Origin: Carcharhinus amblyrhynchos
Taxonomy: Eukaryota
Length of the DNA: 64,000 bases
Reading direction: 5' to 3'
NCBI GenBank assembly: GCA_965287045.1
Contig: OZ336878.1
Location: forward strand, 83,204,001-83,268,000
Under the pieces are notes generated by a model. That model did no database searches. It was not told the DNA's origin and saw nothing but the letters and a program-made list of their open reading frames with translations. This document shows, piece by piece, positions 671 to 62,954 of the stretch (its first letter is position 1; every line of letters begins with the position of its first letter). The position numbers and the translations under genes were made by a program.

Positions 671-837
671 AACAGAAACATGACGACGCAGTGGTGTTTC
701 TCTACCTGTGGATCGCTTGTTTGTTGGTCAGCTCCTGTTACACTCTCACCTGGGACCTGAAGATGGACTGGGGTCTCTTTGACAAAAATGCTGGAGAGAA
801 TACCTTCCTGCGTGAGGAGATTGTGTACCCTCAGAAA
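671..837 (+). CDS. XPR1: XPR1 (SLC53A1) internal coding exon, EXS domain
   Basis: Acceptor tcttttag|, donor |gtatgt. Encodes (E)[55 protein letters not shown], matching the XPR1 [11 protein letters not shown]...[11 protein letters not shown] motif. Upstream exons are outside the window. Confidence 0.95.
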
Positions 838-3973: not shown

Positions 3974-4113
3974 AGTTATTACTACTGTGCCATAGTAGAG
4001 GATGTCATCCTGCGATTTGCTTGGACTGTGCAGATTTCCATCACCTCAATGAGCACTTTTGCTTCAGCAGGAGACATAATTTCCACTGTGCTGGCCCCAT
4101 TGGAAGTCTTCCG
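3974..4113 (+). CDS. XPR1: XPR1 internal coding exon
   Basis: Acceptor tttatttacag|, donor cg|gtaaca. Encodes [46 protein letters not shown](R), in phase with both neighbours. Not in the ORF track. Confidence 0.95.
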
Positions 4114-7688: not shown

Positions 7689-7898
7689 CCGGTTTGTGTG
7701 GAATTTCTTCCGTCTGGAGAACGAACACCTGAACAACTGTGGTGAATTCCGTGCCGTACGTGATATCTCGGTGGCACCCCTCAATGCCGATGACCAGACT
7801 GTGCTGGAGCAGATGATGGACCTTGAGGATGGAGTGCGAAATCGCCAAAAAAGCAGAGTGTGGAAACGCACTTATAGCATCTCTCTGCGTAAAACATT
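7689..7898 (+). CDS. XPR1: XPR1 penultimate coding exon
   Basis: Acceptor ctacag|. Encodes [69 protein letters not shown](L). Donor tt|gtacgt gives the phase-2 junction needed by the last exon; the donor is less certain than the acceptor. Confidence 0.9.
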
Positions 7899-17012: not shown

Positions 17013-17073
17013 AGTGAGGCCCCGTGATGCGGCCGTGTTAATCGAAGACACAGATGATGAAGCGTACACATGA
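17013..17073 (+). CDS. XPR1: XPR1 terminal coding exon
   Basis: Acceptor ttctcacccccag|a. Encodes [19 protein letters not shown] (TGA at 17071-17073), resembling the human end [12 protein letters not shown]. Confidence 0.92.
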
Positions 17074-30984: not shown

Positions 30985-33900
30985 AAGAACATAAAAAGTA
31001 GGAGTAGAAGTACAATCATGGCTGGTCTCATCTTGGTGTCGACTCAAATTTCCTATCCATTCTCCATAACCCTTCAATTTATTACTAATTAATATTTTCA
31101 GCTCCTCAAATTTACTCAATGACCCAGCATCCACTACACTCTGGGGTAATGGATTCCACAGTTTCATGACCTTTTGAAAGAAGTTGTTCCTTCATTACAG
31201 GTGGCTGCAGGGTGACAGAGACTGGGAGCTGAATGTACAGGGCTATCAAGTGTTTAGGAAGGATAGGCAGGAGGGAAAAGTGGGGGGCGTAGCTCTGCTG
31301 ATTAAGGATAGCATCACGGTGGTAGCAAGGGATGATATTGGAGCCAGGGAGCAGAACGTGGAATCGTTGTGGGTAGAGATTAGGAACAGCAAAGGGAGGA
31401 AGACGCTGGTGGGTGTCGTCTATAGGCCCCCGAATCATGATCTGGAGGTGAGGCGGGCTGTTAACGCGCAAATAAGTGTGGCGTGCAGGAATGGGGCGGC
31501 CGCAGTTATGGGGGATTTCAATCTGCATATTGATTGGTCGACCCATGTTGGACGCGGTGGGCTCGAGGAGGAGTTCTTGGAATGCTGCTGGGATAGTTTC
31601 CTGGAACAGTGTGTGTTGGAGCCGACGAGGGAGCGAGCTATCTTGGATCTGGTGCTATGTAATGAGGTGGGTAGAATTAGGGACCTTGCGGTGAAGGATC
31701 CTCTTGGGGAGAGTGATCATTGTATGGTGGAGTTTCTGGTGCAGATGGAGGAGGAGAAAGTGAGTTCCCGGACACGCGTACTTTGTTTGAATAGAGGGGA
31801 GTACGGTAGGATGAGAGAAGAATTGGCAAATGTGGACTGGGGGAGCGCGTTGGAGGGAGGGTCTGCTGAGGAGCAGTGGAGGACCTTTAAGGAGATCTTT
31901 CTTGGTGCTCAGCGGAAATTTATTCCGATGGTCAAAAAGGACCGTAGGAGGAGAGGTAATAAGCCGTGGATAACGAAGGAGGTGAAGGAAAGTGTAAAAT
32001 TAAAAGCGGAGGAATTCAGAGTAGCTAAGAGTAGTGGGCGAGAAGAGGATTGGGAGAGGTTTAAACGTCAACAAAGATTGACAAAGAAGTTGATAAAGAA
32101 GGGTAGGAGAAACTATGAAGCTGGGCTAGCGCTTAATATAAAAAAGGATAGCAAGAGTTTTTATAAATATATAAAAAGGAAGAGGCTGGCTAGGGTGAAC
32201 TTTGGTCCTTTAGAGGATGAGAAAGGGGACCTAGTGGTAGGGGATGGGGATATGGCTAAGGTATTGAATAACTTTTTTGTTTCTGTCTTCACGGAGGAGG
32301 ACGTGAATAATTTGCCGGGTGTTAGCGATGGAAAGGTGGTAGGACTGGAGGGTCTTAATGACGTTACTGTTACTAGAGAGGCGGTGCTCGACAGACTGGA
32401 GGGGCTGATTGTGGACAAGTCCCCAGGACCGGATGGAATGCATCCGAGGGTTCTGAAAGAAATGGCGGAGGTGATAGTGGATGCCTTGGTGGTTTTTTTC
32501 CAGACGTCGCTGGATTCTGGGGAAGTGCCGGATGATTGGAAAACGGCTAATGTTACGCCATTGTTTAAGAAGGGTGCCAGGCAAAAGGTGGGGAATTATA
32601 GGCCGGTTAGTTTAACGTCTGTGGTAGGTAAAATGTTAGAATCTGTCATTAAGGAGGAAATTGCGAGGCATCTTGAAGGGAATTGCTTGATAGAGCAGAC
32701 GCAGCACGGTTTCATTAAAGGGAAGTCGTGTCTGACAAATTTACTGGAGTTCTATGAGGATGTGTCTAGGGCAGTGGATAGAGGAGAGCCGGTGGATGTG
32801 GTCTTTCTAGATTTTCAGAAGGAGTTTGACAAAGAACCTCACAAGAGGTTATTGCAGAAGGTCGAGGGACATGGAGTTGGGGGTAGGGTGTTAGCGTGGA
32901 TAGAGGATTGGTTGTCAAATAGGAGGCAGAGAGTGGGGGTCAACGGGTGCTATTCGGATTGGCGGATGGTGACTAGTGGAGTGCCCCAGGGGTCGGTGCT
33001 GGGGCCTCAGCTTTTTACCATTTACATAGATGATCTGGAGGAGGGAACCGAGTGTAGGGTGTCGAAATTTGCTGATGACACCAAGATTGGGGGAACGGCA
33101 AATTGTGCGGAGGGTGTGGAGAGTCTGCAGAAGGATCTAGATAGTCTGGGCGAATGGGCCAGGAAATGGCAAATGGAATTTAATGTTGGCAAGTGTGAGG
33201 TGGTCCACTTTGGTAGGAATAATGGTAGGAAGGACTATTACTTACGTGGCGAAAAACTGCAGCAGGCGACGGTGCAGAGGGACCTCGGGGTCCTTGTGCA
33301 TGAGTCGCAAAAACCCAGCTTGCAGGTGCAGCAGGTGGTCAGGAAGGTGAATGGGATGCTGGCCTTCATAGCGAGGGGGATTGAATATAAAAGTAGGGAG
33401 GTCTTGCTGCAGCTGTATAGGGCATTGGTGAGGCCGCAGCTGGAGTACTGTGTGCAGTTTTGGGCGCCGCACCTGCGCAAAGATATTTTGGCCTTGGAGG
33501 GAGTGCAGAGGAGGTTTACTAGGCTGATACCGGAGTTGAGGGGGTTGAGCTATGAGGAGAGGCTGAATAAACTAGGCTTGTACTCGTTAGAATTTAGAAG
33601 AATGAGGGGAGATCTCATTGAGACGTATAAGATGATGAATGGGATGGATAGGATAGAGGTGGAGAGACTCTTCCCGCTCAGAAAGGACAGTAGGACTAGG
33701 GGGCACAGCCTCAAGATAAAGGGGGTGCGGTTTAGAACGGAGTTGAGGAGGAACTTCTTCACTCAAAGGGTGGTGAATCTCTGGAATTCTCTGCCCGTTG
33801 AGGTGGTGGAGGCTGCCTCGCTAAATATTTTTAAGACGCGGGTTGATGGGTTTTTGATAAGCAAGGGGATTAAGGGTTATGGGGAGAGTGCGGGAATGTG

Positions 33901-34395
33901 GAACTGAGCCACGACAGATCAGCCATGATCTTATTGAATGGCGGGGCAGGCTCGAAGGGCTAGATGGCCTACTCCTGCTCCTATTTCTTATGTTCTTATG
34001 TTCTAATCTTGGATTTAAATCTCCTACCTCATCCTGAAACTATGACTTCTTGTTCTAGCTTACCCTATAAGAGGGAACATCCTCTCTACATCTACTTTGT
34101 CAATCTCCTTTATCTTATATACCTCAATTAGATCTCCTCTCATTCTTCTAAACTCTAGAGATTTTAGGCTTAAACTGCTCAATCTGTCTTCATAAAATAA
34201 TCTCATATCTGGAATCAATCTGGTGAACCTAACTGTCTCCAATGCAACTACATCCCTCCTCAAGTAAGGGGACCAAAATTGTGCACAATACTCCAGGTGC
34301 AGTCTCACTAATGTCTTGTACAGTTGCAGCAACACTTGTCTACTTTTATACTCTGTTCCTTTAGCAATAAATGCCAAAATTCTATTTGCAATGTA
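30985..34395 (-). mobile_element. Older CR1 3' fragment split by the young CR1 (30985-31199 and 34004-34395)
   Basis: Minus ORFs 34060-34410 (LEYCAQFWSPYLRRD...RRMRGDLIEVYK) and 30979-31167 (LWNPLPQSVVDAGS) are consecutive parts of the CR1 ORF2 C-terminus. Confidence 0.85.
31200..34003 (+). mobile_element. Young 5'-truncated CR1 LINE with uninterrupted ORF2 (APE endonuclease + RT)
   Basis: ORF 31184-33907 contains GVVYRPP, MGDFN, LDLVL, SDH (endonuclease) and NYRPVSL, QHGF, GVPQGSVLGP, FADD (RT). 3' UTR ends in a (ttcttatg)n tail. Homology starts at WLQGD, just after the expected ET of ETW; the called TTG start is in flanking DNA. Confidence 0.95.
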
Positions 34396-45605: not shown

Positions 45606-46699
45606 AACTCCACCATATCTAGATGATCACATTGCTTTTTTGTGTACTCACCGCTATCTCTCTAAGTTGCAATAGTGACCACACTTCAAAAATGTATTCG
45701 ATTGGTATTTTGGTTGCCCCGAGTCAGAAAAGGCGCTACATATAAGCAAGCCTGACTATTTGAATTGACCAAATCATGCTGTAGGTAGACGTAACAGTGT
45801 GGTGAGCATTTTATTAGTCAGCAATGTATCTTCTTCAGCCGACATTCAATTGATTTTGTGGTATTCAAATCTGGTGTGGTATTGTAAGTAGTAGTTATTG
45901 GACTAGTAAGCCAGAGCGTAGACTAATCACCCAGTGAATGAGGGTTCAAATGCCCCTGTAGTATTTTGGAAATTGGAATGTTTTTAGAAGTCTGAATGAC
46001 TGAAATCAGTAAGAGTGACCACTGTTGGACTGTTGCAAAAACAGTCAGCTCCCTAATGCCCTGAGAAAACAGGCCATCCTTACCCAATGTAGTTGACATA
46101 AGAAACAGGAACTGGTGTAGGCAGATCCTGCTCTGCCATTCAATAAGATCAACTCCACTTTTCCTCCTATCCCTTTGTGACCAAAAGCTTTGCAATCTCT
46201 GTTTCAAATACATTCAATAATGGAGCATATGCAGCTTTCTTGGGTAGAGAATGCCAAAAAAATTCATAACCTCGCGTGAAGAATTTTCACTTCATTTCAA
46301 TCCTAAATGTCTGGTGTCTTACCCCCATCTCTTGACTCTTCAGCCCGGATGGAAATAGGAACTCTACATTTGCCTCATCATATCCTTTAACATTCTTGTA
46401 TGTTTCATTAAGATCACCTCTCTCTCCAAAATGTTTTACTCACCATCCTCAGTCTAATAAAACTTAGTTGCACTCACTGTCACATTATCTTGTAATAAGG
46501 AAGCGAAAACTCCGCTGAATACACCAGGTGTAGTCTCATCAAGTTTCTAAGTAAATGACTTCCTCATCCCTCAGAAAGATCTATACGCGACTCCAGACCA
46601 ACAACAATTGGTTGACTCTCTGTGACTCAGTCAGGGTGATCAGGGTTGGGTAATAAATAGAAATGTTGCCAGTGAAGAACCACATCCCAAAAATGGATT

Positions 46700-49600
46700 T
46701 AAAAATCCTATAAACTCAATGCAGTTGAGCCTCACAAGCTCAGGCACTCAGTCTGTTTTCCTTGTAGGGAACAGTTAACCAAAGTCTCACCCGCATCCCT
46801 GCTCAACTGCAATAAGGCACAATGAGCACGAATTGTTTGCTTGGCCCAGTTTCTGGGTTGTGTTTCAGTGGTGATTTGAGGGGGGGGTGGCAATACTGAG
46901 ATGCAAAAGCATCCTGCACCTTATAACTTGCTCCCACAGCACATCCAGAATGATCCATAGGAGGAAGCTACCGCGTTGCCACAGGGCAACACCATGAAAC
47001 ACCAATGCTTGGCTAAAGCTTAAAGTGTGAAGCACCAGGCTGTATGGAACTGCTGTGTTACATTTGTATTTATACATGTTACTTGTTTAAAATCATACAT
47101 ACACAAACATTAACTGCAGCACCATGAGAGAGTCGCACTAACAATTAGCGGGTTATTCCATACCAGGAATAAATGGGCTGCTGTCCCATTCTGTCAATAA
47201 GGCCACTGGAAAAGGGATGTGAGATTGAATGTGTCCATCAGAGTGATTTGAACACCCACGCGCAGCTGTAGAAAAGGGAGAACTCACGAAGCATGTCTCA
47301 CAGTCAATCTTCCAATAAAGGAAAGGGCTTCCAAACACTAAAGCTCAAAATTGTCTGCGTTCATCAGAAACCGGAGTTCAAAATACACTTCACAATCCAA
47401 ATTGTCAAAAACACAGGTTTTCACTGCTGACGGCCCATCCACATAAACAAGGAGTGAAAACCATTCTGAATTGCAACAGAGGCAGTTTCTCACCCCCAAG
47501 CCCAAAATGTGTCAAGTCTACGTGCAACGCACGTCCCAGAAACATTTCACACAGCAAGGCGGGGTATGTTTCAATGTCCAGTCATACCTGTGGTGTAAGC
47601 TAGGAGCCCCCTGAAGTAGTGCAGCATTCCACCTTCACTGATTGGGCATCGTCTCCATTCATTCCAACATGTTCTGCCAAACAAGCCAACATGTTTCCCA
47701 CCTCTGCCAGGTCTACTCCTGCTGCCAATATTAAAGTTCTTCCTCTCCCCATCCCACCACCACCACCATTTTACCTGGAGTAGCCATGGTGCTGGTTTGG
47801 ATTACATATGTTTTGTGAGCAACATATTTAATTGTTAGTATTTTAGACAGGAAGAAAGGGTCGGGCCAGGAAACTTGCCAATGGCACCAGAGAGAAACTA
47901 GACAAGACCCAATGACCAGGCCATAAATTATCACAAGGTTGTTTGTTTACAGTGAAGATCGCCAAGCAAAATGAATTTTAGAAGGCATTACATACCTGCT
48001 CATTTGAAAAGACAGAAACTTGCATTTATAAGGCATTTTATTACATCCCTCAAACATCTCAAAAGTGCCTGACAATGAATTACTTCTTTGACTGACTGCA
48101 ATCACACAAGTGAAAATGGGAGCTGCTTTGTACAAGCAAGATCCCACAACAGCAACACTTTAAATGAAGTTTTGCTTGGGTTCTATGAATGCCTCCACCG
48201 CAAAATCCCTGCTGTTTCTCAAATGGTACCACAGCACTATCATAGAATAACACAGTGCAGAAATAGGCCCTTCAGCTCGAGTCTGCACCAATGCATGATA
48301 AACACCTGAACTCCCACCTAACCCCACCTGCCAGCACTTGGCCCACAGCCCTGAATGTTATGATGTGCGAAGTGCTCATTTAGGTACTTTTTAAAGGATA
48401 TGAGGGAACCATCCTCCCAGTCAGCGCATTCCAGACTATCACCATTCTCTGGAGCTGCTCCTTATCCACTCTGTCCATGTCTCTCATCATTTTGTACACC
48501 TTGATCAGGTCACCCCTCCGCCCTTTCTGCTCCAAGGGAAATAACTCAAGTCTACCCAACCTCTCTTCATCACCCAGCTGAATAGACAGACAGGACCGGG
48601 GTTTGGTGGGCACATCCCACAGTACTCTCCCCAGCTGTTCTGTTGTTTTGATTTACGAGAGTCACTGCACAGTCTTGCTTCATAGTTACGCTGTCCCCCA
48701 CCACAAAAAAAAGTACAATCTGTTATTTCATTTGTAGATCTCCACTGGTTTGGGGGAGCTACAATGGAAGCATGTACAAAAACACCCAAACAATAGTTAC
48801 ATGCGAGTTGACACAATATCTGTACATCAGAAGTAATGAGATAAGTACCAGTAAATTCAATAAACAGCTCAGGGGAAGCATCTGTACTCAGACAGTGGTG
48901 AGAACTCACTATCACAGCAAGTGGTTGAGGCAAACAGAACAAAGAAAAATACAGCACAAGAACAGGCCCTTCGGCCCTCCAAACCTGTGCCAATCATCAG
49001 TGTGGTGTTGGTGTGCTTAAGGGGAAGGTGGGTAAGCTCATCAAGGAAAAAGGAAAAGGATATATTGATGGAGATAGCAGGTGAATATGGGAAGAATGGC
49101 CTGAATTTTACACAGTAAATTCAATGTAATTTAACGTATGCAATATTGGAAATGCAGGATATGGCTGGGGAAACATTACTATGCATTTCTGGTGATTTAC
49201 TCACAACACACTTCGAGTTATCAGGCATTAGTGATGAGAGATCTGCAGCCTTGTCCTTTACAGCATCGTCAAGTCCATTAACGTATCAGCCAAATCTCAG
49301 TGAGTACCACATGCCTCAGATTGCAATATTGTGGGAGTGCATCTCACTTCAGAGACTTGGTCACATAACCCAGGCTGACACTCCAGAACAGTACTGAGGG
49401 AGTACTGCACTGTTAGCAGGCCAGTACTGAGGGGAGTGCTGCACTGTCAGAGTGTCAATACTGAGGGAATGCTTCACTGTCAGGCGTACCCTCTTTCAGA
49501 TGAATTATTACCTGTATCTCTTCTCAAGCGAATGTAGAATATCTCTTTGCACCATGAGAAGAGCAGGGTGTTCTCCCTGTGTCCCGGCCAACTTCTAACC

Positions 49601-50030
49601 CTCAATCACCATCACAGAAACATTATCTGGTCATTATCACAATGCTGTATGTGGGATCTTGCTGTGTGCAAACTGGCTGCTACGTTTCCTACAACAGTGA
49701 CGACATTTCAAACATACTTCATTGGCTGAAGCTCTTTGGGATGTCTTGAGGTGAAAGGCGCTATAGAAATGCAAGTCTTTCTTAATTTACATTCATGACA
49801 ATCCCACCCCAGTTGCAATTTATCCAAAGCATTATGAGGGTATCCAGCAGTGAGAGGGTTAAGCTTCGGGCACAGTGCAGTGATGCCCTCCTTGCCCTTG
49901 CCCAGTACACACTGCCTATCTAATTTCCAGATAGAGTCACCGCTAACAATCCCCAAGCACTAAGCCCCACCACATGACTGACCCCCTACGCAGCATTGTG
50001 TCCTTTTCTGGGAATGACTGTTGGGCTCCA
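46700..50030 (-). other. Probable 3' UTR of the NACC-family gene (distal end undefined)
   Basis: Unique blocks at about 46.7-47.95 kb and 48.6-48.85 kb with U-rich/TGTA character on the minus strand, interspersed with old SINE/CR1 remnants. Confidence 0.4.
49300..49785 (+). mobile_element. Deu-domain/L2-tailed SINE remnant with a triplicated 28-bp motif
   Basis: cagtactgagggagtgctgcactgtcag-like motif three times (49390-49482), tgtgggatcttgctgtg core, tail gaaaggcgctatagaaatgcaagtctttctt. Opposite-strand copies at about 48010-48240 and 50380-50800. Confidence 0.65.
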
Positions 50031-50365
50031 CTAGTTTGGAGCCTCCATGATACCGCTCCCAGTGTCTTCCAGACCCTCTGGGAAACCCGTCTCGTAACGG
50101 TGGCCAGAAGCACCAGGCCTCATCCCATTGGTATCAGGCCTCTGCCCGGCGCCTGGCAGCTCCATTTCTTGGCTCCCATCTGGCAAAGCCCCCGTTGCTC
50201 CATCAGTAATGACCGAGCGATAAACACCGTCTCCCTCAGCCAGCATCAGTTTGAGCTTGGGGATCCAGTGTTTGCGGACCACCCTCCTGGCGTTGGTGCA
50301 CATGTCCGCAGCGATGGCGTTCATCTCGCTCTCCTTGAAATTTGGAGCAAAGTTCTGACAGTAAA
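50031..50365 (-). CDS. NACC-family gene, terminal coding exon
   Basis: Acceptor cttctcttttgcag|. Encodes (V)[52 protein letters not shown]...IMEAPN* (TAG at 50031-50033). Paralog identity uncertain, so no symbol given. Confidence 0.93.
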
Positions 50366-51250
50366 CTGCAAAAGAGAAGACAAAAGCTTGCATTTATCTC
50401 GCACCTTTCACAATCTCAGCATGTCCCAACACGCAGTACCGTCAACAAAACATTTAACGTGGGCCTGCTATTGGAATGTGGCAGGCTATTTATGCACAGC
50501 AAGCTCCCACAATCATCAATGAGGTCATGACCAGATAATCCGTTTTTAATAGTATGGGTTAAGGGACAAATATTGTGCAGATGCACCGATGGGAACTTCC
50601 CATGTAGTGCCATGAAATCTCTTATACCCATCTGAGTGGGCACAGAGACCTCAGTTTAATGTCTCACCTGGGAGACAGGCGGCACCTGCAGCAATGTAGC
50701 ACTCCCTCAGTACAGTGCAGGGAGTGTGTCGGCCTGGATTATTTGCTTGGGTCTCTGCGAGGCTTGACTCAGAAGTCAGAATTCTACGCACTCAGCCCCA
50801 GCTAACAGAGGAGATGTCTCACAAAAGGAACAGTGTTTAAGCAAGGAGCTGGCCCAGACAGCATAAGAGGAGGCCATTCACATTGTATCTCAGAGCTCTC
50901 CAATTAGTCCCACACCTCTGCCCTTACCCCACAGCCCTTTAAATTGTTCCTGTTCAGGTGCTTACCCAATTGCCTTTGGGAGGTTATTTTTGAATCTGCT
51001 TTCAGGCAGTGCATTTCAGATCATAACCCTTGCTATGTTATAAAAGTTCTCCTCTTGTCCTCTCTGTTCTTTCACCAATGCTAATAAGTCTGTGCCCTCT
51101 GGTCACTGGCTAATCTATCAGTTTTTGCCCTGTGTTCACTATCCAAACCCTACAACTGTTAGTTATTCTAACACCACCATCAAGCATGAAACATTCTTTG
51201 GGGATAGAGTAAAGTCTCAGCTTCTTACATAATAATTCTATTCCATCTGC

Positions 51251-52418
51251 TGTTGGAAAGCAAAGATCGTTTTAACAGATTTATACTTGCGTGGGCAAAC
51301 ATTAGGTTTAGTTAGGTCTAGTTTAGGTAGGTTTTATTTAATATTTCTGTGCCAGAGGGAAAAAAACCTATAGTTAGATTTCATGCTGAACAAAAGTGTT
51401 TGTGTGGAGGATAGTTTCAGTCCTAGCTGAGATTTGATTGTGACAGAAAGCGCTACGGCATTAAGAATAAATATCATTGCTTAGCAACTTGGGGTTCCTT
51501 AAGGTTAATCAAACAGTTTCTTTTTTTAGTTTCAGTTGAAAGCGAGAAGCAGTTGTAGAAAGAGCATGAAGCAATAAACAACTCTCTCAGCTCTGCTAGG
51601 GGAAACTAAAGAGGAACTAGCTTTTTTAGCTTTGCTGTAAGAAAAATCCTACAATGTAGTAACGGTTCAGATAACCAGTGCCAAAGATCTAAAGGTCAAC
51701 AAGTTAAGGAGCTAAAGAAATTAAAAAAAAGGTTTCCAGAAGGTGTGGACTTAAAGGGAACAAAGAAGAAACTATAGAAAATAGAAAAAAATTATAGAAA
51801 AGAAGAAAAATAGAAAAGGATTCTGTTCAGGGATACCAGAAAAGGCTGAGAAGACATTGATTGGTGAGGATACTAGAGAAAGGTTTTCTACAAGTAATCC
51901 TAAAGTTTGAAATGAAACAAATTATAAAGTATTGACTGGATATCAGAATTGGTGTAACAGTCAAAACCTGAAAGGATTAATCCAAACTCCTGGCATGGGT
52001 TTACTGCTAAAAGTGGAGCGAAAGCTCTGGTCAAATGAATCCTTTGGAAAATGTGGCGTGGAATATGTTGGGAGTGGATTTTGGAAACTCCCAAATGATA
52101 ATCATCTGGGGGAATTCTGAGGACAAATCCACAAACATTAAGTGTGTGCGCTAACAAGTCCATTGTGGCTTCAAATGTACTTTGTCATCTATGTTAAACT
52201 TAAAACCGTGTTATTGGTTAAGTTAGAGGAGGAGTGAAGGAGTCTTGTATTATAATCCATTTTTCATGTTTAATAAATTACTTTTTCTTGTTGTTAAAAT
52301 AATTAGTGGTCCTGTGACTTTCTTCTTCTGTGTTTGATTAAAAGTTTACAGTCCTTTGAGGCAGGGTTCCATTCTGGTATCTTCCCTTCCAGTTATAACA
52401 TTGACTGAGATCATAACA
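51251..52418. mobile_element. Putative solo LTR (about 1.17 kb)
   Basis: TGTT...AACA termini, near-matching 4-bp flanks CTGC/CTAC, internal AATAAA near 52272, no ORF. Confidence 0.5.
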
Positions 52419-53520
52419 CTACTTCTGCATTAGCCTCTCACACACAGGAAAGGTCAGTCCTAGTCACGGTTCTCAAGTACTGTTCTTTTCAACTGAACTC
52501 TGGAATGATCCAGCTTTCCATCATCCACTCCCTCCTTTATACCACTTCTTAGTGGGGCTAGCATGTAGATTCACCAGAATGGTAGTCTGTTTAATGGGTT
52601 AATTTAGGAAGCCAGCTCGCATGGGTTAGGCTTGTATATAGATGAGAAGGTGATCTACAAAGGAGGAGGCCATTCAGCCCCTTAAGCCTGTTCTGCCCAT
52701 TCCATGCAATCATGGTTGATCTGCATCTTAAATTCAATAACCTGCCTTGACTTCATATTCTTTTACATCCTGACTGGCAAAAATGCATGGGTCTCAGGTT
52801 TAAAATTAATAGATCTATCACCCACTGTTTTTGTGACAGCGTGCTCCAGACTTATACCCTCCTGTGTGGAAAGAGTGTTTCCTAACCTCTCGCCCAAATG
52901 GCCGCCTGTCCTCCACTCCCCTACCAGTGAAAAACCATTCTAATCATCTATTTATGCCTTTCAAAATCCAAAAACTTCAGTCAAATCACTCCCAGGGAAT
53001 ACAAGTTTTGTTGTAACTTCTTTAAAAATCATCTAATTATCATTACTCTAACTTACTCTAGCCCTTGATAACATTCTGGACTGGCACTGCATTATTCCCA
53101 AGGCCAACGTACCCTTCCTAAGCTGTGGACCCCAGACCTGTACACAGTATAATAAGCAGAGCTTCCTCCCTTTACATTCACCAAAGATCCTTAGACAGCA
53201 CTTTCCAAACCCACGACCACTTCCATCTAGAAGGACAAGGGCAGCAGATACATGGGAACACCACCACCTGCAAGTTCCCTTCTAAACACTCACCATCCTG
53301 ATTTGGAAATATATCACCATTCCTTCATAGTTGCTGGGTCAAAATCCTGGAATTACCTCCCTAATGGCATTGTGGGTCAACCCACAGCACTTGTGCTGCA
53401 GCAATTCAAGAAGACAGCTCATCAACATAATTTCAAGGACAACTAAGGATGGGCAATAAATGCTGACCAACCAGCGATGTTCATGTCCCATGAATGAACA
53501 AAAAGAAATTCTAGATAGAA

Positions 53521-53698
53521 GCAAATTATTGCAGATGCTGGAATCTGAAACCAAAAGAGAAAATGCTGGAAAATCTCAGCAGGTCTGGTAGCATCTGTAA
53601 ACAAAGAAAAGAGCTGGTGTTGAGTCCAGATGACCCTTAATCAAAGCTTTATAGATGCAGCCAGACATGCTGACAGTTTCCAGCATTTTCTCTTTTGG
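53521..53698. mobile_element. Short inverted Penelope-like terminal fragment
   Basis: About 50-bp inverted arms, ccaaaagagaaaatgctggaaa... (53551-53601) and ...tttccagcattttctcttttgg (53648-53698). Confidence 0.55.
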
Positions 53699-54282
53699 AA
53701 AAAGATTCCATCCACCTTGGCATAAAGTTGAACATTCCTTTAGTCTTTTTGATTATGTTTTAACACCTGCCTACTCCATTTTAGAGATCTGTGTACATGG
53801 AACTCCTAAGGCCAATTTTGATGGTATCAGACAGAAACATCGGGTAAATGGGAGACTTTTGAAAGCGTGCTAACTAAGATTCAGGATAAGCACATTCTTC
53901 TTAAAGTGAAAGACAAGGCTGGTAGAAGTAGGGAATCCCAGATGACTCAGGATATTGAGGCTCTGGTCAAGGAGGAGGAGGAGGCACATAACATGCATAG
54001 GCAGTTGGGATGCCTTGAAGAGTATAGGGGGTGTGGGAGTAGAGCTAAGAGAGAAATCAGGAGGGCAAAAAGGGGACACAAGATTGTTTTGGCACATCAG
54101 GCAAAGGAGAATCCAAAGAAATTCTACAAATATATAAAGGGCAAAAGAGTAACAGAGACAGTAGGGCCTCTTAAGGATCAACATGGTCATCTATGTGTGG
54201 ATCCACAAGAGATGAGTGAGATCCTAATATTTCTCATCAGTATTTACTGTTGAGAAAAGCATGGATGTTAGGGGGCTTGAGG

Positions 54283-56270
54283 CCGTCTGGAAATCTGATA
54301 AATCATGTCCACTGGTTCTCCTTTATCTAACTCTCATGTTACCTCCTGAAAGAACTCTGACAGATTTGTCAGACATGACCTCCCCTTGACAAAGCTGTGC
54401 TGACTCAGTCCTACTTTATCATGCATTTCCAAGTACTCCATGATCTCATCTTTAATAATGAATTCTAAAATCTTGCCAATGATCAAAGTCAGGCTAACAG
54501 GCCTATAATTTCCCTTCTGCTGCCTTCCTCCCTTCTTAAACAGCGGTGTTACATTAGCTACTTTCCAGTCCTTTGGGAGCCTCCCTGCTTCCAGTAATTC
54601 TTAAAAGATTACCACCAATGCCTCCACAATTTCCTCAGCTATCTCTTTTAGAATTCTGGGATGCAGTCCATCAGGTTCAGGTAATTTATCCACCTTCAGA
54701 CCTTTAAGTTTCCCCAGAACCTTCTCCTTGGTGATAGCCACTGCACTCAACTGTGTCCCCTGACTCTCCTGGAGCTCTGGTGTCTCACTGGTGTCTTCCA
54801 CCGTGAAGACTGATGCAAAGTAACTATTCAGTTCCTCTGCTGTTTCTTTGTTTCCTATTATTATTTCTCCAGCCTCATTTTCCAGTGGTCCAATGTCAAT
54901 TTTTGCCTCTCTCCTACCTTTTATATATTGAAAAAAAAACTCTTCCTATCTTCTTTTTATATTACTAGCTAGCTTACACTCATATTTCATCTTCTCCCCC
55001 CTTATTGCATTTTTAGTTGTCCTCCGCTCACTTTTAAAGGCTTCCCAATCCTTTGGCTTCCCATTAATTCTTGCAACTTTGCACGCTTTTTCTTTTGCTT
55101 TTATGCTGTCCTTGACTTCTCTCGCCAGCCATGGATGCCTTGCCCTCCCCTTAGCATGTTTCCTCCTGCGTGGAATGAATTTCTATTGTGCAGCTCTGCC
55201 TGAGGTTAGATTCCTGCCACCTTCTACACTCTCTGTTCTATTATGTTGTCTGGAAACTTTACTAACCTCTCCTGAGCCTTCAATTCCATTAACCTGCACT
55301 GCTACCCTCTCCTTTAACTTTGATTTTCTAATTTTCCAGACAACTGAAGCGTCTCCCCCATTATTTAGTTTAAAGCCCTATCTACAGAATTCTGGTCCCA
55401 GCATGATTCAGATGAAGACTGCCCCATCAGAACAAGTCTTCCCCAATACTGGTGCCAAATCCCATGAATTCAAACCCATTCCTCCCCCACCAATCTTTGA
55501 GCCACGCATTTACCTCCTTAATCTTGACCCTGTGCCAATTAGCTCGTAATTACCGCTTAGGTAATCATCTCTGGATTATTACCTTTTTGGTTCTGCTTTT
55601 TAATTTAGCTCCTAGGTGTTCATACTCCCTTAGCAGAACATTTGCTCCTGTTCTATCTATGTCATTGTTACCTTTGTGGACCACGATAACTGGGTCTTTA
55701 CACTCCCACTCTAAGTTCCCCTGCAGCCCAGATGAGATATCCCTAACTTGAACAGCAGGCAGGCAACATAGCCTTCAGGATTCTTGATCCTGATCACAGA
55801 GAACAGTGTCAATGCCTCTAACTGTACCATCCCCAATTACAAGTACATTTCCTTTTTCTCCCCCCACTTGAACGCCTCCCTGTACCACAGGTTAAGAGAG
55901 TGGGCTTACAGGAAATTGAGAGGCCTGGATAGAGTGGACGTAGAGAAGATGTTTTGACTAGTAGGAGAAACCAGAACCAGAGGGCACAACCTGAGGCTAA
56001 TGGGATGATCCTTTAAAACAGAGATGAGGAAGGATTTCTTCAGCCAGAGAGTGGTGAATCTGTGGAACTCTTTGCCGAAGAAGGCTGTGAAGGCCAGGTC
56101 ATTGAGTGTCTTTAAGATAGAGATAGATAGATTCTTAATTAATAAAGGGGTCTGGGGTATTGGGGAAAAGGCAGGAGAATGGGGATGAGAAAAATATCAG
56201 CCATGATTGAATGGCGGAACAGACTCAATGGGCTGAGTGGCCTAATTCTGCTCCTATGTCTTATAGTCTT
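54283..56270. mobile_element. Rearranged CR1: antisense ORF2 and ORF1 (SGNH-esterase-like) pieces joined to a sense 3' tail
   Basis: Minus strand KVDKLPEPDGLHPRILKE (54601-54801) and VIGDGTVRGID...CLPAVQVRDI (about 55735-55840); plus-strand tail 55890-56270. A separate plus-strand CR1 fragment lies at about 53830-54280. Confidence 0.7.
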
Positions 56271-56599
56271 ATCTATTGTTGTCTGCTTTGTAGTTTTATG
56301 CTATTATCTACACTACGTATTAATCCACCAGTCTTTGGTACATCAGCAAAAATGTGGAGCTGCGACTCTGTAAAGTGATATCCAAATCATTAGTAATCAC
56401 AGTGTACAGTAGAGGTCTTGGTACAAATCCTGGTGGGTCACCACTAGTCAATCCCTTCCATTTCCATTATATCCCCATCTTCTCCCATCTAAACAAGCAA
56501 TCTCCCAGCCAGGTCAATACTTGGCTTTCAATACCATGAGATTTGCTACTTGTTACGTGGAACCTTATCAGATGGTTCCTATAAATCAAAGACGATAGA

Positions 56600-56830
56600 A
56601 GCCATACGATGCAGAAGGGGGCCAGTCAGCCCACTGAGTCTGCACCAACTCTCCAAAAGAGCTTCCCACCCAGGCCCTCCCTCACTCCATCCCTAAAACC
56701 CGTGAATTTACCGTGGCTAATCCGCCTAACCTGCACATCTTGGGACACTAAGGGGTAATTTAACATTTTCAATCCACCTAACCTGTACATCTTTGGACTG
56801 TGGGAGGAATCCCAAGCACCTGCAGACACA
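56600..56830 (-). mobile_element. 5'-truncated V-SINE
   Basis: Reverse complement of cctcccacagtccaaagatgtacaggttagg plus a CR1-like tail. Confidence 0.8.
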
Positions 56831-56849
56831 CTGAAGTTGACACAAATTG

Positions 56850-58150
56850 AAGCGCTTAAGGATTACTAAACATTAAACACTAATGAGACTCCGAGGATTA
56901 ATATGGACATATGGAAAGAACTAAGGGCTTGGGAAGCAGCAGACATTAAGTAGAGAAACAGGATTGGAGTGTGGGATAAGTGAGAATACAAAAAGATTAG
57001 GAGAGAAGTCAAAAAACAATTAGGAAGGCAAAGAGGAACTATGTATAAAATTATCAAAGCACATAAAAGAAAATAGCAATTGAAAGATGTGATAAACAAT
57101 AAGGTAAATGATTTTAAAGGAAATAGCAGATGTACTGAATAAACTAACAAATTCAAAGAGTGTGAAACTCCTGGTGCAGATGGACTGTATTCACATATGT
57201 TTAACAATTCCATGGGAAGAGATAGGAAAGACATTATTACTCGCATTTAAAAATTCATTAGATGAAGGTGTTGTACCAGGGGACTAACAGATAGATAATG
57301 GCATTCTGATTAAGAAGGGGGGCAAAATTTGTCCAGGTAATTATATGTCAGTTAGCTTAATACAATAGGTGGGAGAAATAAAGAAATCATGACTAAAGGA
57401 GAGAATATTTAGAAATGAGAAATATAATAATGAAATCAATATTGATTTCACATGGGGAAAATCTTGCTCATTGAATATTTTGAAGATCTGAAAGAGAAGA
57501 GAGAGAGAGTAGACATTGGTAATGCAGTAGATGTAATTTATCTGGGGTTTCAAAAGGCCCTTAAGTTGCAGAATGGGCAAATACTTTGGCAGATCAACGC
57601 AGATAAATGTGACATAGTTCATTTTGATGGGAAGAATAGTGAGGTCACTGATAATTTGGAAGGTGCCAGTGTCTGTGGGGTAGAGGAACAAAGAGATCTC
57701 AGAATATAAATATATCAATGACCAGAAGGTGCGTCACAGATTAACAAGGCCTGAAAAAGATCAAACTAAGAATAAGGGTTTATTTCTAGAAGGATAGAAT
57801 TGAAAAGAAGGGGAGTTATACTAAACCTGTATTGAACTTTTGTTAAGCGCACAATTAGACACTGTCTGTGGTTCAGGTCACCATGTTATAAAAAGGATAT
57901 AGAAACAGTGAAGAGAGTGCAGAGAAAATGTACCAGACTGATACCAGAAATGTGTGGGTATGAAATCAGGAAGGGATTGACAGGTTGGGTCTGTTTTCTC
58001 GTGAAAAGAAGACTGAGGGGTGATCTAACAGAGATCTTTAAAATTCTGAAAAGTTTTGATAGAGGGGATGAAGAGAGATTATTTCCCCTCGTGGGGGAGA
58101 ACTAGAGGCCACCAATATAAGATAGTCACCAAGAAATCCAATAGGGAATG
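56850..58150 (+). mobile_element. Highly decayed CR1
   Basis: NAVDVIYLGFQKA and RRLRGDLTEIFKI remnants. Confidence 0.7.
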
Positions 58151-58739
58151 TGACTGTGGCTATTTGACTGCAGAGTGCATCACAGCCAAACCTGACAAGT
58201 CATATTCAACATCTCCACACGTGCGCCTTCGTGGAGATCAAGCCCATGGGGCTGTGACCAGAGCAGGACTATTAATGGTCTCTTGGGCAGTCAAGGTTCC
58301 ACTGGGTGGTGATGGGCCCTTGGATTAGGGACAGAAACACTAACATTACTTTGACATCTCTCTTTCAGCGGTTCCTGAGGCTGATACATTCAGCTGTTCT
58401 CACTGTCCAGGGTGTAATGTGGCTCCCCCCATTATCCTTCCGCCTACTGACTGACTGACTAAACCACTCCCCCCTCCCTCGACTCAGGCATCAAATTTAA
58501 ACCCCTTGTCCTCATTCAGTCTGGCCCCTTCCTACCTCTCTGACTCCCTCCTCACACCCTCCAGCTATGATATCAGTGTCCGTGCCTCTGAGTGTCTCAA
58601 GCCCACACCCATCGTAAAGCCCTTCAGCCCATTCACTGTACCCGTTTCTGCCTCTCTGGACAACTCAATGCCCGTTCCTCTCCTCACTGCCCTTTTCACC
58701 ATTAACACCTCTCCATAAACACAGCACTGCCCTGTTTAC

Positions 58740-58837
58740 CTTTAATGGCGTTGAGTATCCTGCTATCCAGTGGTTTCCGACTGGGATCGCAGAGTGAAGA
58801 ACGGATTCCAGTGCCGCAGCTGTTAGCCAGAGTATTC
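58740..58837 (-). CDS. NACC-family gene, 98-bp BEN-domain exon
   Basis: Minus-strand acceptor tag|, donor g|gtaaac. Encodes [32 protein letters not shown](V); phases agree with both neighbours. Confidence 0.93.
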
Positions 58838-59344
58838 CTAGTGGATCCAGAAGATTAGGCAGTCAAAACAAGTGAGCGACATTCACAGACACATCTTTAC
58901 AAAACTAGCTGATGGTTTCCAGTGACTATCCTTCATGTAGCCTTGGAGTTAGCTTCTGTGATGGGCACAAATAAGCAGTACAAGAAGGGTAGCACAGTGG
59001 TAACATTACCAGACTAACAACCCAGAGGCCCCAATTAATGTGCTGATGTGACTTCAATCCCATAGCAATGTAATTGACTCTTAACTGCCCTCTAAAATGG
59101 ACAAGCAATCAAACTGCCACAGGACATCAAATAAGAATGAAACCAGTCACACCAACTGGTGTTTATCTCAGCACTAGGAAGGACAAAGGCACATCAGCCC
59201 TGCAAAGCCCTTCTTACTCATAACTGAGAGCTTGTGTCAGTTTTGGAGAGCTGTCCACAGACATACTTACACTCACTGAGCCGTTTCTTACAGCCAATGT
59301 CCCAGACACCTCCATCAACTTCCTTGTTCTGCCAGTGAGTCGTG

Positions 59345-59628
59345 GGGTGGCACAGTGGTCAGCACTGCTGCCTCACAGCTCCAGGGACCTGGGTTCAATT
59401 CCAGACTTGGTCACTGTCTATGTGAAGTTTGCACGTTCTCCCATGCCTGTGTGAGTTTTCTCCCACAGCCCAAAAATGTGCAGGTTAGGTTAACTGGACA
59501 TTCTAAATTAACTCTTAGTGTCCTGAGATGTGAATAGGTTATAGGGATTAGGGATAACTAAGTGGGGATAGGGCCTGAGTGGGATTGATTGGCCGAATGG
59601 CCTCCTCCTGCACTGAGGGTTTCTATGT
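59345..59628 (+). mobile_element. V-SINE
   Basis: A and B boxes, V domain and tail. Confidence 0.85.
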
Positions 59629-60525
59629 TACCATCTGTCCTTCTCCCCCTGCTCCCACTCTATATCAACCTGTCACTGATACATCTGACCACGATAGTAC
59701 TGGTATGAGCGATCTTCACACAGGAACACCCTCAATCATATTGTGTGGCACGCCCACCATGTAAAATGGGATGAGTTCAGAACAGGTTGAGCATCTTGAG
59801 ACTGGGCATCCATGAGCTACTGTGGGCCATCAGCAGCAGCAGCAGAATTGTACTCAACCACAATCTGTAACCTCATGGCCCAGCATATCCCCCACTCTAC
59901 CATTACCCCAAGCCAGGGGATCAACCCTGGTTCAATGAAGAGTGCAGGACGGCATGCCAGGAGCAACAGCAAATATACTGAAAAATGAGGAGTTAACCTG
60001 GTGAAGCTACAACACAGGACTGTGTGCCAAAGAGCAGAAGCAGCAAATGATAGACTGAGCTAAACCATCCCATAACCAATGGATCAGATCAAAGCTCTGT
60101 AGTCCTTCATATCCAGCTGTGAATGGTGGTGGACAATTAAATGACTTACTGGAGGTTCCACAAATATCCCCATCCTCTATGATGGAGGAGCCCAGCACAT
60201 TGGTGCACAAGATAAGGTTGAAGCATTTGCAGCAATCTTTGGCCAGAATACCATGCGGAAGATCTATCTTGGCCTCCTCCAGAGGTCCCCAGCATCACAG
60301 ATGTCAGTCTCCAGCCAATTCAATTCACTCCATGTGATATCAAGAAAAGGCTGAGGGCACTGGATACTGCAAAGACTATAGGTCCTGACAAAATTCTGGA
60401 AATAGTACTGATGGCTTGTGCTTCAGAACGAGCTGTTGACCTAACCAAGCTGTTCCAGTACAGATACACGACTGGGGCATCTACCCGGCAATGTGGAAAA
60501 TTGCCCAGGTCTGTCCTTTACACAG

Positions 60526-62109
60526 GATGTGGAGATGCCAGCGTTGGACTGGGGTAAGCACATTAAGAAGTCTCACAACACCAGGTTAAAGTCCAACAGG
60601 TTTATTTCGTAGCAAAAGCCACAAGCTTTCGGAACATTGCCTCTTCATCAGATGAGTGGGAGTTGTGTTCGCAAACAGGGCATATATAGACTCAAACTCA
60701 ATTTACAAAATAATAGTTGGAATACGAGGCTTTACAGATAATCAAGTCTTAAAGGTACAGACAATGTGAGTGGAGAGTGGGTTAAACACAGGCTAAAGAG
60801 ATATGTATTGTCTCCAGCCTGGACAGTTAGTGAGATTTTGCAACCCAGGCAAGTCATGGGAGTTACAGATAGTGTGACATGAACCCAAGATCGGGGTGAG
60901 GCCATCCTCATGTGTGCAGAACTTGTCTATCAGTTTCTGCTCAGCGATTCTGCGTCGTCAAGTGTCGTGAAGGCCACCTTGGAGAACGTTTACCCAAAGA
61001 TCAGAGACTGAATGCCCATGACTGCTGAGGTGTTCCCCAACAGGAAGAGAACACTCACACCTGGTGATTATTGAGCAGTATTCAGTCATCCATTGTCATA
61101 GCGTCAGCATGGTCTCCCCAGTGTACCATGCCTCGGGGCATCCTTTCCTGCAGCGTATCAGGTAGGCAATGTTGGCTTGCATGAGTTGCAAGCTGGGTAG
61201 TTTGCTGCAGACAATAGTCTGTTTGAGGTTGTGCAGTTGTTTGGAGGCAAGACGTGGAGGTATAGGGACAGCCTTGGTGAGATGTTCGTCTTCATCAATG
61301 ACATATTGAAAACTCGGAGAAGATGTCGTAGCTTCTCCACTCCGGGGAAGTACCCAGCCTTCAAGAGAACAGTGACCACAACACCACACAACCCTGCCAC
61401 AGCAACCTCTGCAAGATGTGCCGGATCATCGACACGGATGCCATCATCTCGCGTGAGAACACCATTCACCAGGTACATGGTACATACTCTTGCAACTTAG
61501 CCAGCGTTGTCTACCTGATACGCCACAGGAAAGGATGTCCCGAGGCATGTTACATTGGGGAGACCATACAGATGCTACAACGGATAAATGAACACTGCTC
61601 GACAGTCACCAGGCAGGAGTGTTCTCTTCCTGTTGGGGAACACCTCAGCAGTTACAGGCATTCGGCCTCTGCTCTTCGGCTAAGCGTTCTCCGAGGCAGC
61701 CTTCACAACACACGACAATGCAGAATTGCTGAGCAGAAACTGATAGCCAAGTTCCACACGAGGACGGCCTCAACTGGGATCTAGGGTTCATGTCACACTA
61801 TCTGTAATCTCCCCCGACTTGCCTGGGCTTGCAAAATCTCACTAACTGTCCTGGCTGGAGACAATATACATCTCTTTAACCTGTGCTTAACCCTCTCTCC
61901 ACTCACGTTGTCTGTACCTTTAAGACTTGATTACCTGTAAAGACTCGTGCTCCAACCATTATCTTGTAAATTGAGTTTCTGTCTATGTATGCCTGTCTGT
62001 GAACACAATTCCCGCTCACCTGATGAAGGGGCAGTGTTCCAAAAGCTTGTGGCTTTTGCTACCAAATAAACCTGTTGGACTTTAACCTGGTGTTGTGAGA
62101 CTTCTTACT
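60526..62109. mobile_element. Penelope-like element remnant in inverted configuration (GIY-YIG endonuclease and terminal repeats)
   Basis: ORF 61416-61784 reads YSCNLASVVYLIR...CYIGET...RINEH (GIY-YIG). The mirror copy on minus reads IAYLIRCRKGCPEAWYTGET. Inverted arms about 60564-61186 and 61486-62107. Confidence 0.9.
60620..60654 (-). ncRNA. Minimal hammerhead ribozyme motif in the Penelope terminal repeat
   Basis: Minus strand CAU-CUGAUGA-AGAGGCAAUGUUCC-GAAA-GC-UU-GUG: both core boxes present, palindromic AAGCUU at stem III, imperfect stem II. The plus-strand copy (62017-62051) has AAAA in place of GAAA. Confidence 0.6.
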
Positions 62110-62848
62110 TTACAAATTCAACTCAGTCTACTCTTAAACATCAGGTAAAGCGATGGAAGGGGGTCATCAACAGTGCTATCAAATGGCACTTACTCAGCAA
62201 TAACTTGTTCACTGATGTTCAATTTGGGTTTCACCAGGGTTACTCAGCTCCTGACCTCATTACAGCCTTGGTTCAAACATGGACAAAAGAGCTGAATTCA
62301 TATCATACGCTAAAGACTTCCAAATCCTACACGGTGTGAAAAAAAGATCAGTTTGTCACGATGTCCCTGAATCGATAATTGGTTTGGAAAGTTATACTTT
62401 GCAGAATCAAGTTGCCAATTGTGCTAGACTGTCTCTAGGAATCTCTGAAATTTGAAATTTAACTTCCAAGACAATGCAGTAATTTGAAAATCCCCGAAGA
62501 AAAATCATCAGGAAATTAAAAATCTGTTTTTTCATTACTTAGTTCTAAAGAGATGCAGACATACTTTTTCAGTAATGGTCAATATTAATCCAATTGGATA
62601 ACAAAGATTATGATCCCTGTCCTGCAGGAAGACCGTGTCCCTGGAGGATGGATCAACGGTGGGTGTGTGGCGCTGAATCGTGTGATGAAACCTCCAGGCA
62701 TTGCCCCATGCAGAGATGGCAAGCCCATCATGGAGACACAAATGTTTTGTAAACACTGACACAGTTCAGCAAGTGTTTTGTTGTGGTAACACTGCTGGAC
62801 CAAGTGAACTTCACAGACCCAAGTGACAACTGCCAAGTTTAAACTCAC

Positions 62849-62954
62849 CGATCAAAGAATGCAGCCAGCAATCTCCGCAGCAAAACCTTGTGTCTGGTCC
62901 CCGCACAGATATGACAATTCATCAGCTGAGCTCTTGTGATGTACACGCTCGTAC
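62849..62954 (-). CDS. NACC-family gene, 106-bp BEN-domain exon
   Basis: Minus-strand acceptor ctgcag|, donor cg|gtgagt. Encodes (G)[34 protein letters not shown](R), the NACC1/NACC2 BEN motif. Confidence 0.93.

Follow-up and report, generated by a model that had tools for sequence, protein, structure and literature searches.

A third NACC gene beside XPR1 in cartilaginous fishes: a predicted CATG-core binder, likely lost in bony vertebrates

Analysis of a 64,000-nucleotide (nt) stretch of the Carcharhinus amblyrhynchos genome (contig OZ336878.1, positions 83,204,001 to 83,268,000; hereafter, the window) reveals that its minus strand carries, at 50031..62954, the three BEN-domain exons of an NACC gene, which we call NACC3. 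We put at roughly 80% the probability that NACC3 is a third NACC gene of cartilaginous fishes that arose as the sister copy of NACC1 in the second genome doubling, was likely lost in bony vertebrates, and encodes a predicted binder of CATG-core DNA.

The exons were located by tblastn with a Mustelus asterias protein annotated as 'NACC1-like' (P0001), the matches of which fall exactly on the three exons. The 106-nt exon at 62849..62954, bordered by an AG acceptor and a GT donor, starts the BEN region and encodes its beta strand and helices 1 and 2, including the counterparts of human NACC1 residues R400 and R401 (36/36 residues identical to P0001, E = 5e-18). The 98-nt exon at 58740..58837, likewise with AG/GT borders, encodes helix 3, the α3-α4 loop with the clade-specific sequence SSLCDP, and the start of helix 4 (33/33 identical to P0001, E = 5e-15). 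The last coding exon, 335 nt at 50031..50365, follows an AG acceptor, ends in TAG, and encodes the recognition helix α5 and a clade-specific C-terminal tail of ~65 amino acids (94% identity to P0001 over 114 amino acids, E = 1e-67); it also matches the human NACC1 BEN structure 7BV9 (E = 2e-17). Joined, the three exons form one frame of 178 amino acids with its sole stop at the end, and 174 of the 178 residues are identical to P0001. An earlier, sequence-only reading of this stretch had proposed three correctly phased BEN exons of an NACC gene converging on XPR1; the splice sites, the open frame, and the tail-to-tail XPR1 exons bear that out.

P0001 carries a Pfam BEN domain (E = 2e-8) and matches 7BV9 at E = 5.5e-87. 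The BTB/POZ domain is seen in orthologues, the BTB exon lying beyond the window: in the 98%-identical Mustelus orthologue it is recognised by Pfam at E = 6e-26, and against the NACC1 BTB structure it scores E = 1e-58. The BEN core is identical at 112/112 positions in four sharks and at 108/112 in chimaera, a near invariance that points to long purifying selection. It is practically certain that the window holds the 3′ half of an intact, conserved third NACC paralogue.

Sequence searches place the gene in cartilaginous fishes. Among the best 120 of 956 matches to the last exon, ten proteins, each from a cartilaginous fish, are 68-96% identical to the query and cover 88-100% of it; the matches after them are carried mainly by the BEN part. 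Cluster look-ups show the group to span 22 species of sharks, rays, skates, and chimaera, with most records named 'NACC1-like'. In Hemiscyllium, each of the three genes has its own chromosome, NACC3 a contig of 116.5 Mb, NACC1 one of 33.3 Mb, and NACC2 one of 67.3 Mb; in two Mobula species and in Rhincodon, NACC3 and NACC1 occupy separate contigs; and catshark and chimaera have NACC3 plus NACC2, with no chimaera NACC1 among the matches listed.

The main tree (39 rows, IQ-TREE, mixture model, lamprey protein P0350 as outgroup) has the topology ((NACC3,(shark NACC1,bony NACC1)),NACC2). Specifically, the window peptide and 11 chondrichthyan 'NACC1-like' proteins form one clade (support 100/99); 4 shark and 14 bony proteins form an NACC1 clade (100/99) that is its sister; and NACC1 plus NACC3 are separated from NACC2 and lamprey at 100/97. 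A tree of the BTB and BEN domains only has the same shape, with corresponding supports of 98/97, 100/99, and 100/98, and a tree of the window-covered columns only, the BEN-peptide tree that the sequence-only reading had called for, keeps NACC3 as a separate clade (97/94). The NACC1 and NACC2 clades each contain sharks and bony vertebrates, and NACC3 lies outside both, indicating that the duplication predates the split between sharks and bony vertebrates. The three-clade structure is independent of the root, and the sister relation of NACC3 and NACC1 depends on it; in this respect, lamprey sides with NACC2 against NACC1 plus NACC3 in 5 columns and supports the other two pairings in 0 columns. 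Among P0174, P0349, P0352, P0374, and P0403, the tree position of a paddlefish protein annotated as NACC2 shows it to be NACC1, and the teleost-like NACC2 rows fall into at least two divergent lineages.

The sequence-only reading had described the peptide as a mix of NACC1-like and NACC2-like residues. The motifs it listed are present, but NCHxCAG, DPSRK, and LNA also occur in shark NACC1 (which reads NCHVCAG, DPSRK, and VLNAVK) and, nearly unchanged, in lamprey; they are thus ancestral states, changed in bony NACC1, and are not diagnostic alone. Nor is the mix even, as NACC3 is the sister of NACC1 by tree and, where columns are fixed two against one (23 in all), agrees with NACC1 in 17 and with NACC2 in 2. 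In particular, NACC1 (NAC1, BTBD14B, BEND8) has the same BTB plus BEN layout as the NACC3 orthologues, is the closest paralogue, and shares with NACC3 the extra valine of RRVVRK, TRAQ, and GTRHK, which are absent from NACC2 and lamprey. NACC3 differs from NACC1 in being only ~68% identical to the shark protein, in lying on another chromosome, in having SSLCDP rather than SSTNDP in the DNA-facing loop, in lacking the basic KRLW motif of the linker, in its longer, unrelated tail, and in not being found in bony vertebrates among the matches listed. NACC2 (RBB, BTBD14A, BEND9) likewise has the same domain layout and shares with NACC3 the ancestral MLxxGxxVYRxV after helix 5, but is only ~63% identical to it. 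NACC3 is instead recognised by its SSLCDP loop, by ILNAIKV and KHWIP, and by its tail. Of the 233 proteins with a BEN loop that were fetched, 33 have SSLCDP, every one of them chondrichthyan and none bony, and the odd, unnamed teleost-like rows among the 233 all group with NACC2 or NACC1.

In 15 of the 18 species in which both were found, chimaera included, the accession or locus-tag numbers of XPR1 and NACC3 adjoin (as with XP_038651085/6 in catshark, XP_055497992-6 in skate, and XP_007901138-40 in chimaera), which makes the pairing as old as living chondrichthyans; in the other three (Carcharodon, Stegostoma, and Rhincodon), XPR1 and NACC3 match only in the size of their contig. UBAC1 we take to be a neighbour of NACC2. 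In the available parts of the skate genome paper, which are the basis for all statements on skate below, promoters on Leri_10C are given for Ier5-1 at 40.92 Mb, Xpr1-2 at 41.06 Mb, and 'Nacc1' at 41.29 Mb, Nfix and Trmt1 lie on Leri_39C, and Ier5l and Ubac1 lie on Leri_31C (PMC10115646, SI Tables 3 and 10). The skate 'Nacc1' (LE10501, Leri_10C, 41.29 Mb) adjoins XPR1 and is therefore NACC3; IER5 is 0.37 Mb and NFIA 11 Mb away from it, and the order is IER5 - XPR1 > < NACC3, with IER5 5′ of XPR1 (PMC10115646). Positions are taken from coordinates only, as the skate LE gene identifiers do not follow them. In the same paper, LER10 corresponds to chicken 8 (GGA8) and to segment 1-alpha, LER39 is its 1-beta partner, and LER31 corresponds to GGA17 and 2-alpha (PMC10115646). 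Human NACC1 lies within a 908-kb interval with NFIX, TRMT1, LYL1, STX10, IER2, and CACNA1A, according to the part of the source available (PMC13298845).

The tree ((NACC1,NACC3),NACC2) thus has the shape predicted by ((1-beta,1-alpha),2-alpha), and NACC3 is very likely an ohnolog from the two whole-genome duplications (2R). In the history we propose, the first doubling would have split NACC2 (2-alpha, skate LER31, chicken 17) from the ancestor of NACC1 and NACC3, the second would have split NACC3 (1-alpha, LER10, chicken 8) from NACC1 (1-beta, LER39), and bony vertebrates would afterwards have lost NACC3. The trees, the co-occurrence in Hemiscyllium, and the skate chromosome paralogy support the earlier proposal of a third NACC ohnolog in the XPR1/IER5 paralogon, absent from humans. 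As for its setting, compared by the sequence-only reading with the human 1q25 block, XPR1 and IER5 are indeed near NACC3 in skate, but the order differs, with IER5 on the 5′ side of XPR1. In human 1q25, IER5 presumably lies 3′ of XPR1, and the human order around NACC1 is, we assume, NACC1, STX10, IER2. Read from the NACC side, the skate order resembles this latter order with XPR1 in between. IER5 on opposite sides of XPR1 in skate and, by our assumption, human suggests that one lineage probably inverted the XPR1-IER5 block, the place of the likely NACC3 loss.

Other origins can be weighed against descent from the second doubling. That NACC3 is a chondrichthyan-specific duplicate of NACC1, or is NACC1 or NACC2 itself relocated beside XPR1, would fit the NCBI name 'NACC1-like', the skate annotation 'Nacc1', and the lack of a chimaera NACC1 among the matches listed. 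However, approximately unbiased (AU) tests on 25 rows (14 of the 39 left out as fragments, long branches, or near-duplicates; 11 of the 39 left out in a repeat test) reject NACC3 with shark NACC1 (p = 0.00085, and p = 0.003 on domains only), NACC3 with bony NACC1 (p = 0.00088), NACC3 with shark NACC2 (p = 9e-44), NACC3 with all NACC2 (p = 0.007), and NACC3 as basal (p = 0.006). Moreover, shark NACC1 is 76.5-79.6% identical to bony NACC1 and only ~68% identical to NACC3, and sharks retain separate NACC1 and NACC2 genes, so that this explanation is barely tenable. That a small-scale duplication or a transposition placed an NACC1 copy beside XPR1 in the jawed-vertebrate stem is quite unlikely. 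The tree dates the duplication only as older than the split between sharks and bony vertebrates, and the close paralogous neighbours amount to the single pair IER5/IER2, with STX6 and CACNA1E not located in the available skate table; against this, NACC3 lies ~0.37 Mb from IER5 on the 1-alpha partner (LER10) of the chromosome carrying the neighbours of human NACC1 (LER39), its topology is the one predicted by the doublings, and its introns exclude a retrocopy.

The sequence-only reading had also offered a true NACC1 or NACC2 beside a second XPR1 ohnolog. For the NACC gene, this is rejected by the AU tests, and a second XPR1 is not required. That the XPR1 here is not the orthologue of human XPR1 is, taken on its own, very unlikely. 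The labels might suggest it: 'homolog' or '-like' at NCBI, 'xpr1b' for chimaera at Ensembl, and 'Xpr1-2' in the skate table. The view is limited to the best 120 of 1655 XPR1 matches, and the elasmobranch XPR1 tail is 4 residues shorter than that of gar and tetrapods at the last exon junction (7890-7898/17013-17073), lacking their RRPRLASQ stretch, with a different, intermediate version in chimaera. Yet shark XPR1 shows no extra depth (82.5% identity for shark-gar and 83.8% for shark-turtle, versus 85.1% for gar-turtle), a single XPR1 type is present per chondrichthyan species among those 120 matches, skate Xpr1-2 lies beside IER5 on LER10, the counterpart of chicken 8, and the available skate table also gives such suffixes to partial models of other genes. 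A fly-rooted XPR1 tree put the root inside teleosts, a long-branch artefact, and only distances and unrooted position were used.

A full-length NACC3 query scores 764 bits against chimaera NACC3, followed by 642 for shark NACC1 and 625 for the best bony NACC1, and the only NACC3 row below the 764-to-642-bit gap is a partial whale-shark NACC3 (best 120 of 1118 matches). No bony NACC3-like row appears among these, among the best 120 of 956 last-exon matches, or among the best 150 of 2803 matches from a HMMER scan of 1.84 billion representatives; those 150 include 2 further NACC3-type rows, unnamed and shark- or skate-like, and the 50% clustering of that scan could hide a bony copy. All rows from bichir, sturgeon, paddlefish, and lungfish that were placed in the trees are NACC1, those from amphibians, reptiles, mammals, and teleosts are NACC1 or NACC2, and the remaining listed rows were assigned to NACC1 or NACC2 by best score. 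It is likely that NACC3 is confined to cartilaginous fishes and was lost in all bony vertebrates. The sequence-only reading had spoken of loss from mammals; the loss appears wider, extending to all bony vertebrates sampled. Survival of an unannotated or fast-evolving copy in coelacanth, gar, bowfin, bichir, or lungfish is unlikely. The view of slow-evolving bony fishes rests on protein lists rather than a DNA-level genome search, and in the available part of the skate paper the ohnologues shared by chondrichthyans and coelacanth number 17 and those shared with ray-finned fish 24, compared with 19 in chondrichthyans alone (PMC10115646). On the other side stand the bit-score gap after chimaera NACC3, the NACC1 identity of the bichir, sturgeon, paddlefish, and lungfish rows, and the absence of SSLCDP from bony members of the 233 BEN-loop proteins.

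Several points weigh against origin by 2R and loss in bony vertebrates. The root is one long-branch lamprey protein (P0350), the tree tool warned of long branches meeting, and no invertebrate NACC outgroup was found by a protein profile scan and an ESM Atlas look-up, in which the best matches, among those listed, were NACC1 and NACC2 clusters only. The placement of skate NACC1 on LER39 is inferred from its human neighbours, and that of skate NACC2 likewise. The flanking genes named by the sequence-only reading are recovered in part: IER5 is nearby, but STX6 and CACNA1E were not found in the available skate table, so that the microsynteny consists of IER5 alone (PMC10115646). The basis for the absence from bony vertebrates is a set of ranked protein lists, which unannotated or decayed copies would escape, and no gar, bowfin, or coelacanth NACC protein appears by name among the matches listed.

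The structure of human NACC1 bound to DNA allows the contacts of NACC3 to be predicted. In the crystal structure, as described in the text available, the CAT bases are read by D462, T465, and R469, the minor groove is entered by R421, and the DNA backbone is held by R400, R401, S423, R429, N466, R468, R472, and G419-I420 (PMC11472053). In the window peptide, 10/10 DNA-contact side chains are identical (R400, R401, R421, R429, D462, T465, N466, R468, R469, and R472), as are the counterparts of G419, I420, and S423. The NACC1 and NACC2 BEN domains are reported to prefer nearly the same ACATGT site (PMC8887127, available part). Because NACC1 and NACC2 share nearly the same site and the contact residues are kept, NACC3 is predicted to bind ACATGT, and thus, through its BEN domain, the CATG motif of NACC1, for which binding at 1.3 µM is reported. 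Major-groove reading of the CAT bases would fall to helix α5, and minor-groove reading to the arginine of the α3-α4 loop. NAC1 homodimerises through its BTB domain, according to the available part of PMC7764960; a BTB-dimerised NACC3 would recruit co-repressors and act as a CATG-binding transcriptional regulator. What preserved NACC3 was most likely an expression pattern or partners of its own, given its divergent linker and tail, and not a new DNA motif.

Clade-specific changes are positioned where they could affect function. In the loop, TN is replaced by LC beside R421 and S423 (SSTNDP to SSLCDP). In the linker (P0001 ~150-200), NACC3 keeps VKxE and lacks KRLW, which is present in all aligned NACC1 rows and reads KRLY in lamprey. 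We take KRLW to be part of the NAC1 nuclear signal. That signal is described, in the literature available in part, as bipartite and in the N-terminal half. The LC loop, the loss of KRLW, and the distinct conserved tail may matter functionally.

A bolder and rather unlikely proposal is that NACC3 would be a cartilaginous-fish-only CATG regulator of its own chondrocyte or skeletal-patterning programme, with a single loss, at the root of bony vertebrates, through a rearrangement of the XPR1-IER5 block; if true, its loss would be one of the regulatory changes separating cartilaginous from bony skeletons. One lead is that loss of mouse Nacc1 alters vertebral patterning and chondrocyte matrilin expression, as stated in the part of the source available (PMC3724875). 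A second is the fixed Leu-Cys change next to the minor-groove arginine, which could shift flanking-base choice or add redox control. Another is suggested by expression of skate NACC3 in the developing pectoral fin: LE10501, labelled 'Nacc1', has a baseMean of 136 in pectoral fin and is listed as differing between anterior and posterior fin (log2 fold change -1.57, padj 0.0096), in a direction that cannot be read, as anterior and posterior markers are both negative among the 6,887 rows listed (PMC10115646 supplement).

NACC3 follows the pattern of the chondrichthyan-only ohnologues described in the skate paper, in which a 2R copy persists in sharks, skates, and chimaera and is unfound in bony vertebrates. 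In the available text, 19 ohnologues are kept only in chondrichthyans, and wnt6b and cspg5 are named among retained ohnologues (PMC10115646). NACC is not named in the main text of that paper as available, and may stand on its list of 68 cases (PMC10115646); nor is it named in the available main text of the whale-shark paper (PMC8455134). Loss of the alpha copy with the beta copy kept is the less common direction, by the available part of PMC7269912. NACC3 departs from the usual fate accordingly: the alpha chromosome, known for high retention, is the one that carries the lost copy, and beta is likely the one with the surviving copy. We found no description of a third NACC gene in the literature searched, a search outside which most subscription papers lie, and no paper in it naming XPR1, STX6, IER5, and KIAA1614 together. 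Both NCBI and Ensembl contain models of the gene, under names of the NACC1 type.

NACC3 would add a third branch to a two-member human transcription-factor family tied to cancer, pluripotency, and a neurodevelopmental syndrome, and offers a view of a BTB-BEN copy after >400 million years apart. It exposes an orthology error, in that skate 'Nacc1' and the NCBI shark 'NACC1-like' genes are NACC3 and expression data under that name are thus misassigned. It also provides a clean marker of the 1-alpha/1-beta split in the chicken-8/19p13 paralogon, in which bony vertebrates likely lost alpha and kept beta. Hidden shark ohnologs are well known as a pattern, which limits the surprise.

Four sequencing runs were mapped, the RNA status of which is a guess. 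Contigs from three of the four, belonging to three studies, break exactly at the acceptor at 50365, beyond which other sequence follows; in run X2 this added part is 207 nt long, compared with 204 nt (98+106) for the two upstream exons. The exon-exon joint itself is not among the joints listed for the mapped runs, where repeats dominate, and run X13 has no piece ending at 50365 among the matches listed. NACC3 transcripts are likely spliced, and the skate gene is expressed in pectoral fin. Contig coverage in the same presumed RNA runs points to a probable 3′ untranslated region (UTR) of at least 2-3 kb at 47130..50030 on the minus strand, of which the contigs that stop at 50365 cover 1-3 kb; AATAAA signals occur at 48037 and 45810. 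Run X1 has near-identical contigs spanning 47130-47579 and 48032-50365, and X2 and X6 cover the region from ~48950. A 2.4-kb contig of another species (run X13) aligns to 45958-48358 with ~7% differences, beyond the first poly(A) signal, and this stretch may be a longer 3′ UTR or a conserved non-coding stretch.

The plus strand of the window carries the end of XPR1: the fourth-from-last coding exon at ~671..837 (98% identity to catshark XPR1 P0209), the third-from-last at ~3974..4113 (P0209 match and exon borders), the second-from-last at ~7689..7898 (matching human XPR1 structures at E = 1e-31), and the last, with TGA, at ~17013..17073 (P0209 match and exon borders). XPR1 (plus) and NACC3 (minus) converge tail-to-tail, with ~33 kb between their stop codons. 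No further gene was found there by Pfam, with 0 of 138 non-repeat open reading frames of at least 48 amino acids matching at E ≤ 0.01, a scan that is weak for short exons, as the three NACC3 exons alone also scored no match.

The window is repeat-rich vertebrate DNA, 35.5% of which is masked as long interspersed nuclear element (LINE) or self-repeat. Between XPR1 and NACC3, an open LINE frame of 909 amino acids at 31178-33904 on the plus strand encodes an endonuclease and a reverse transcriptase (Pfam RVT_1, E = 4e-31) and probably represents a young element of CR1/L2 type; the window has 40 further LINE-like pieces. Within an NACC3 intron, at 61099-61781, two facing fragments contain GIY-YIG-like sequence (Pfam E = 5e-4 for the plus-strand one) and resemble what we take to be Penelope-like elements.

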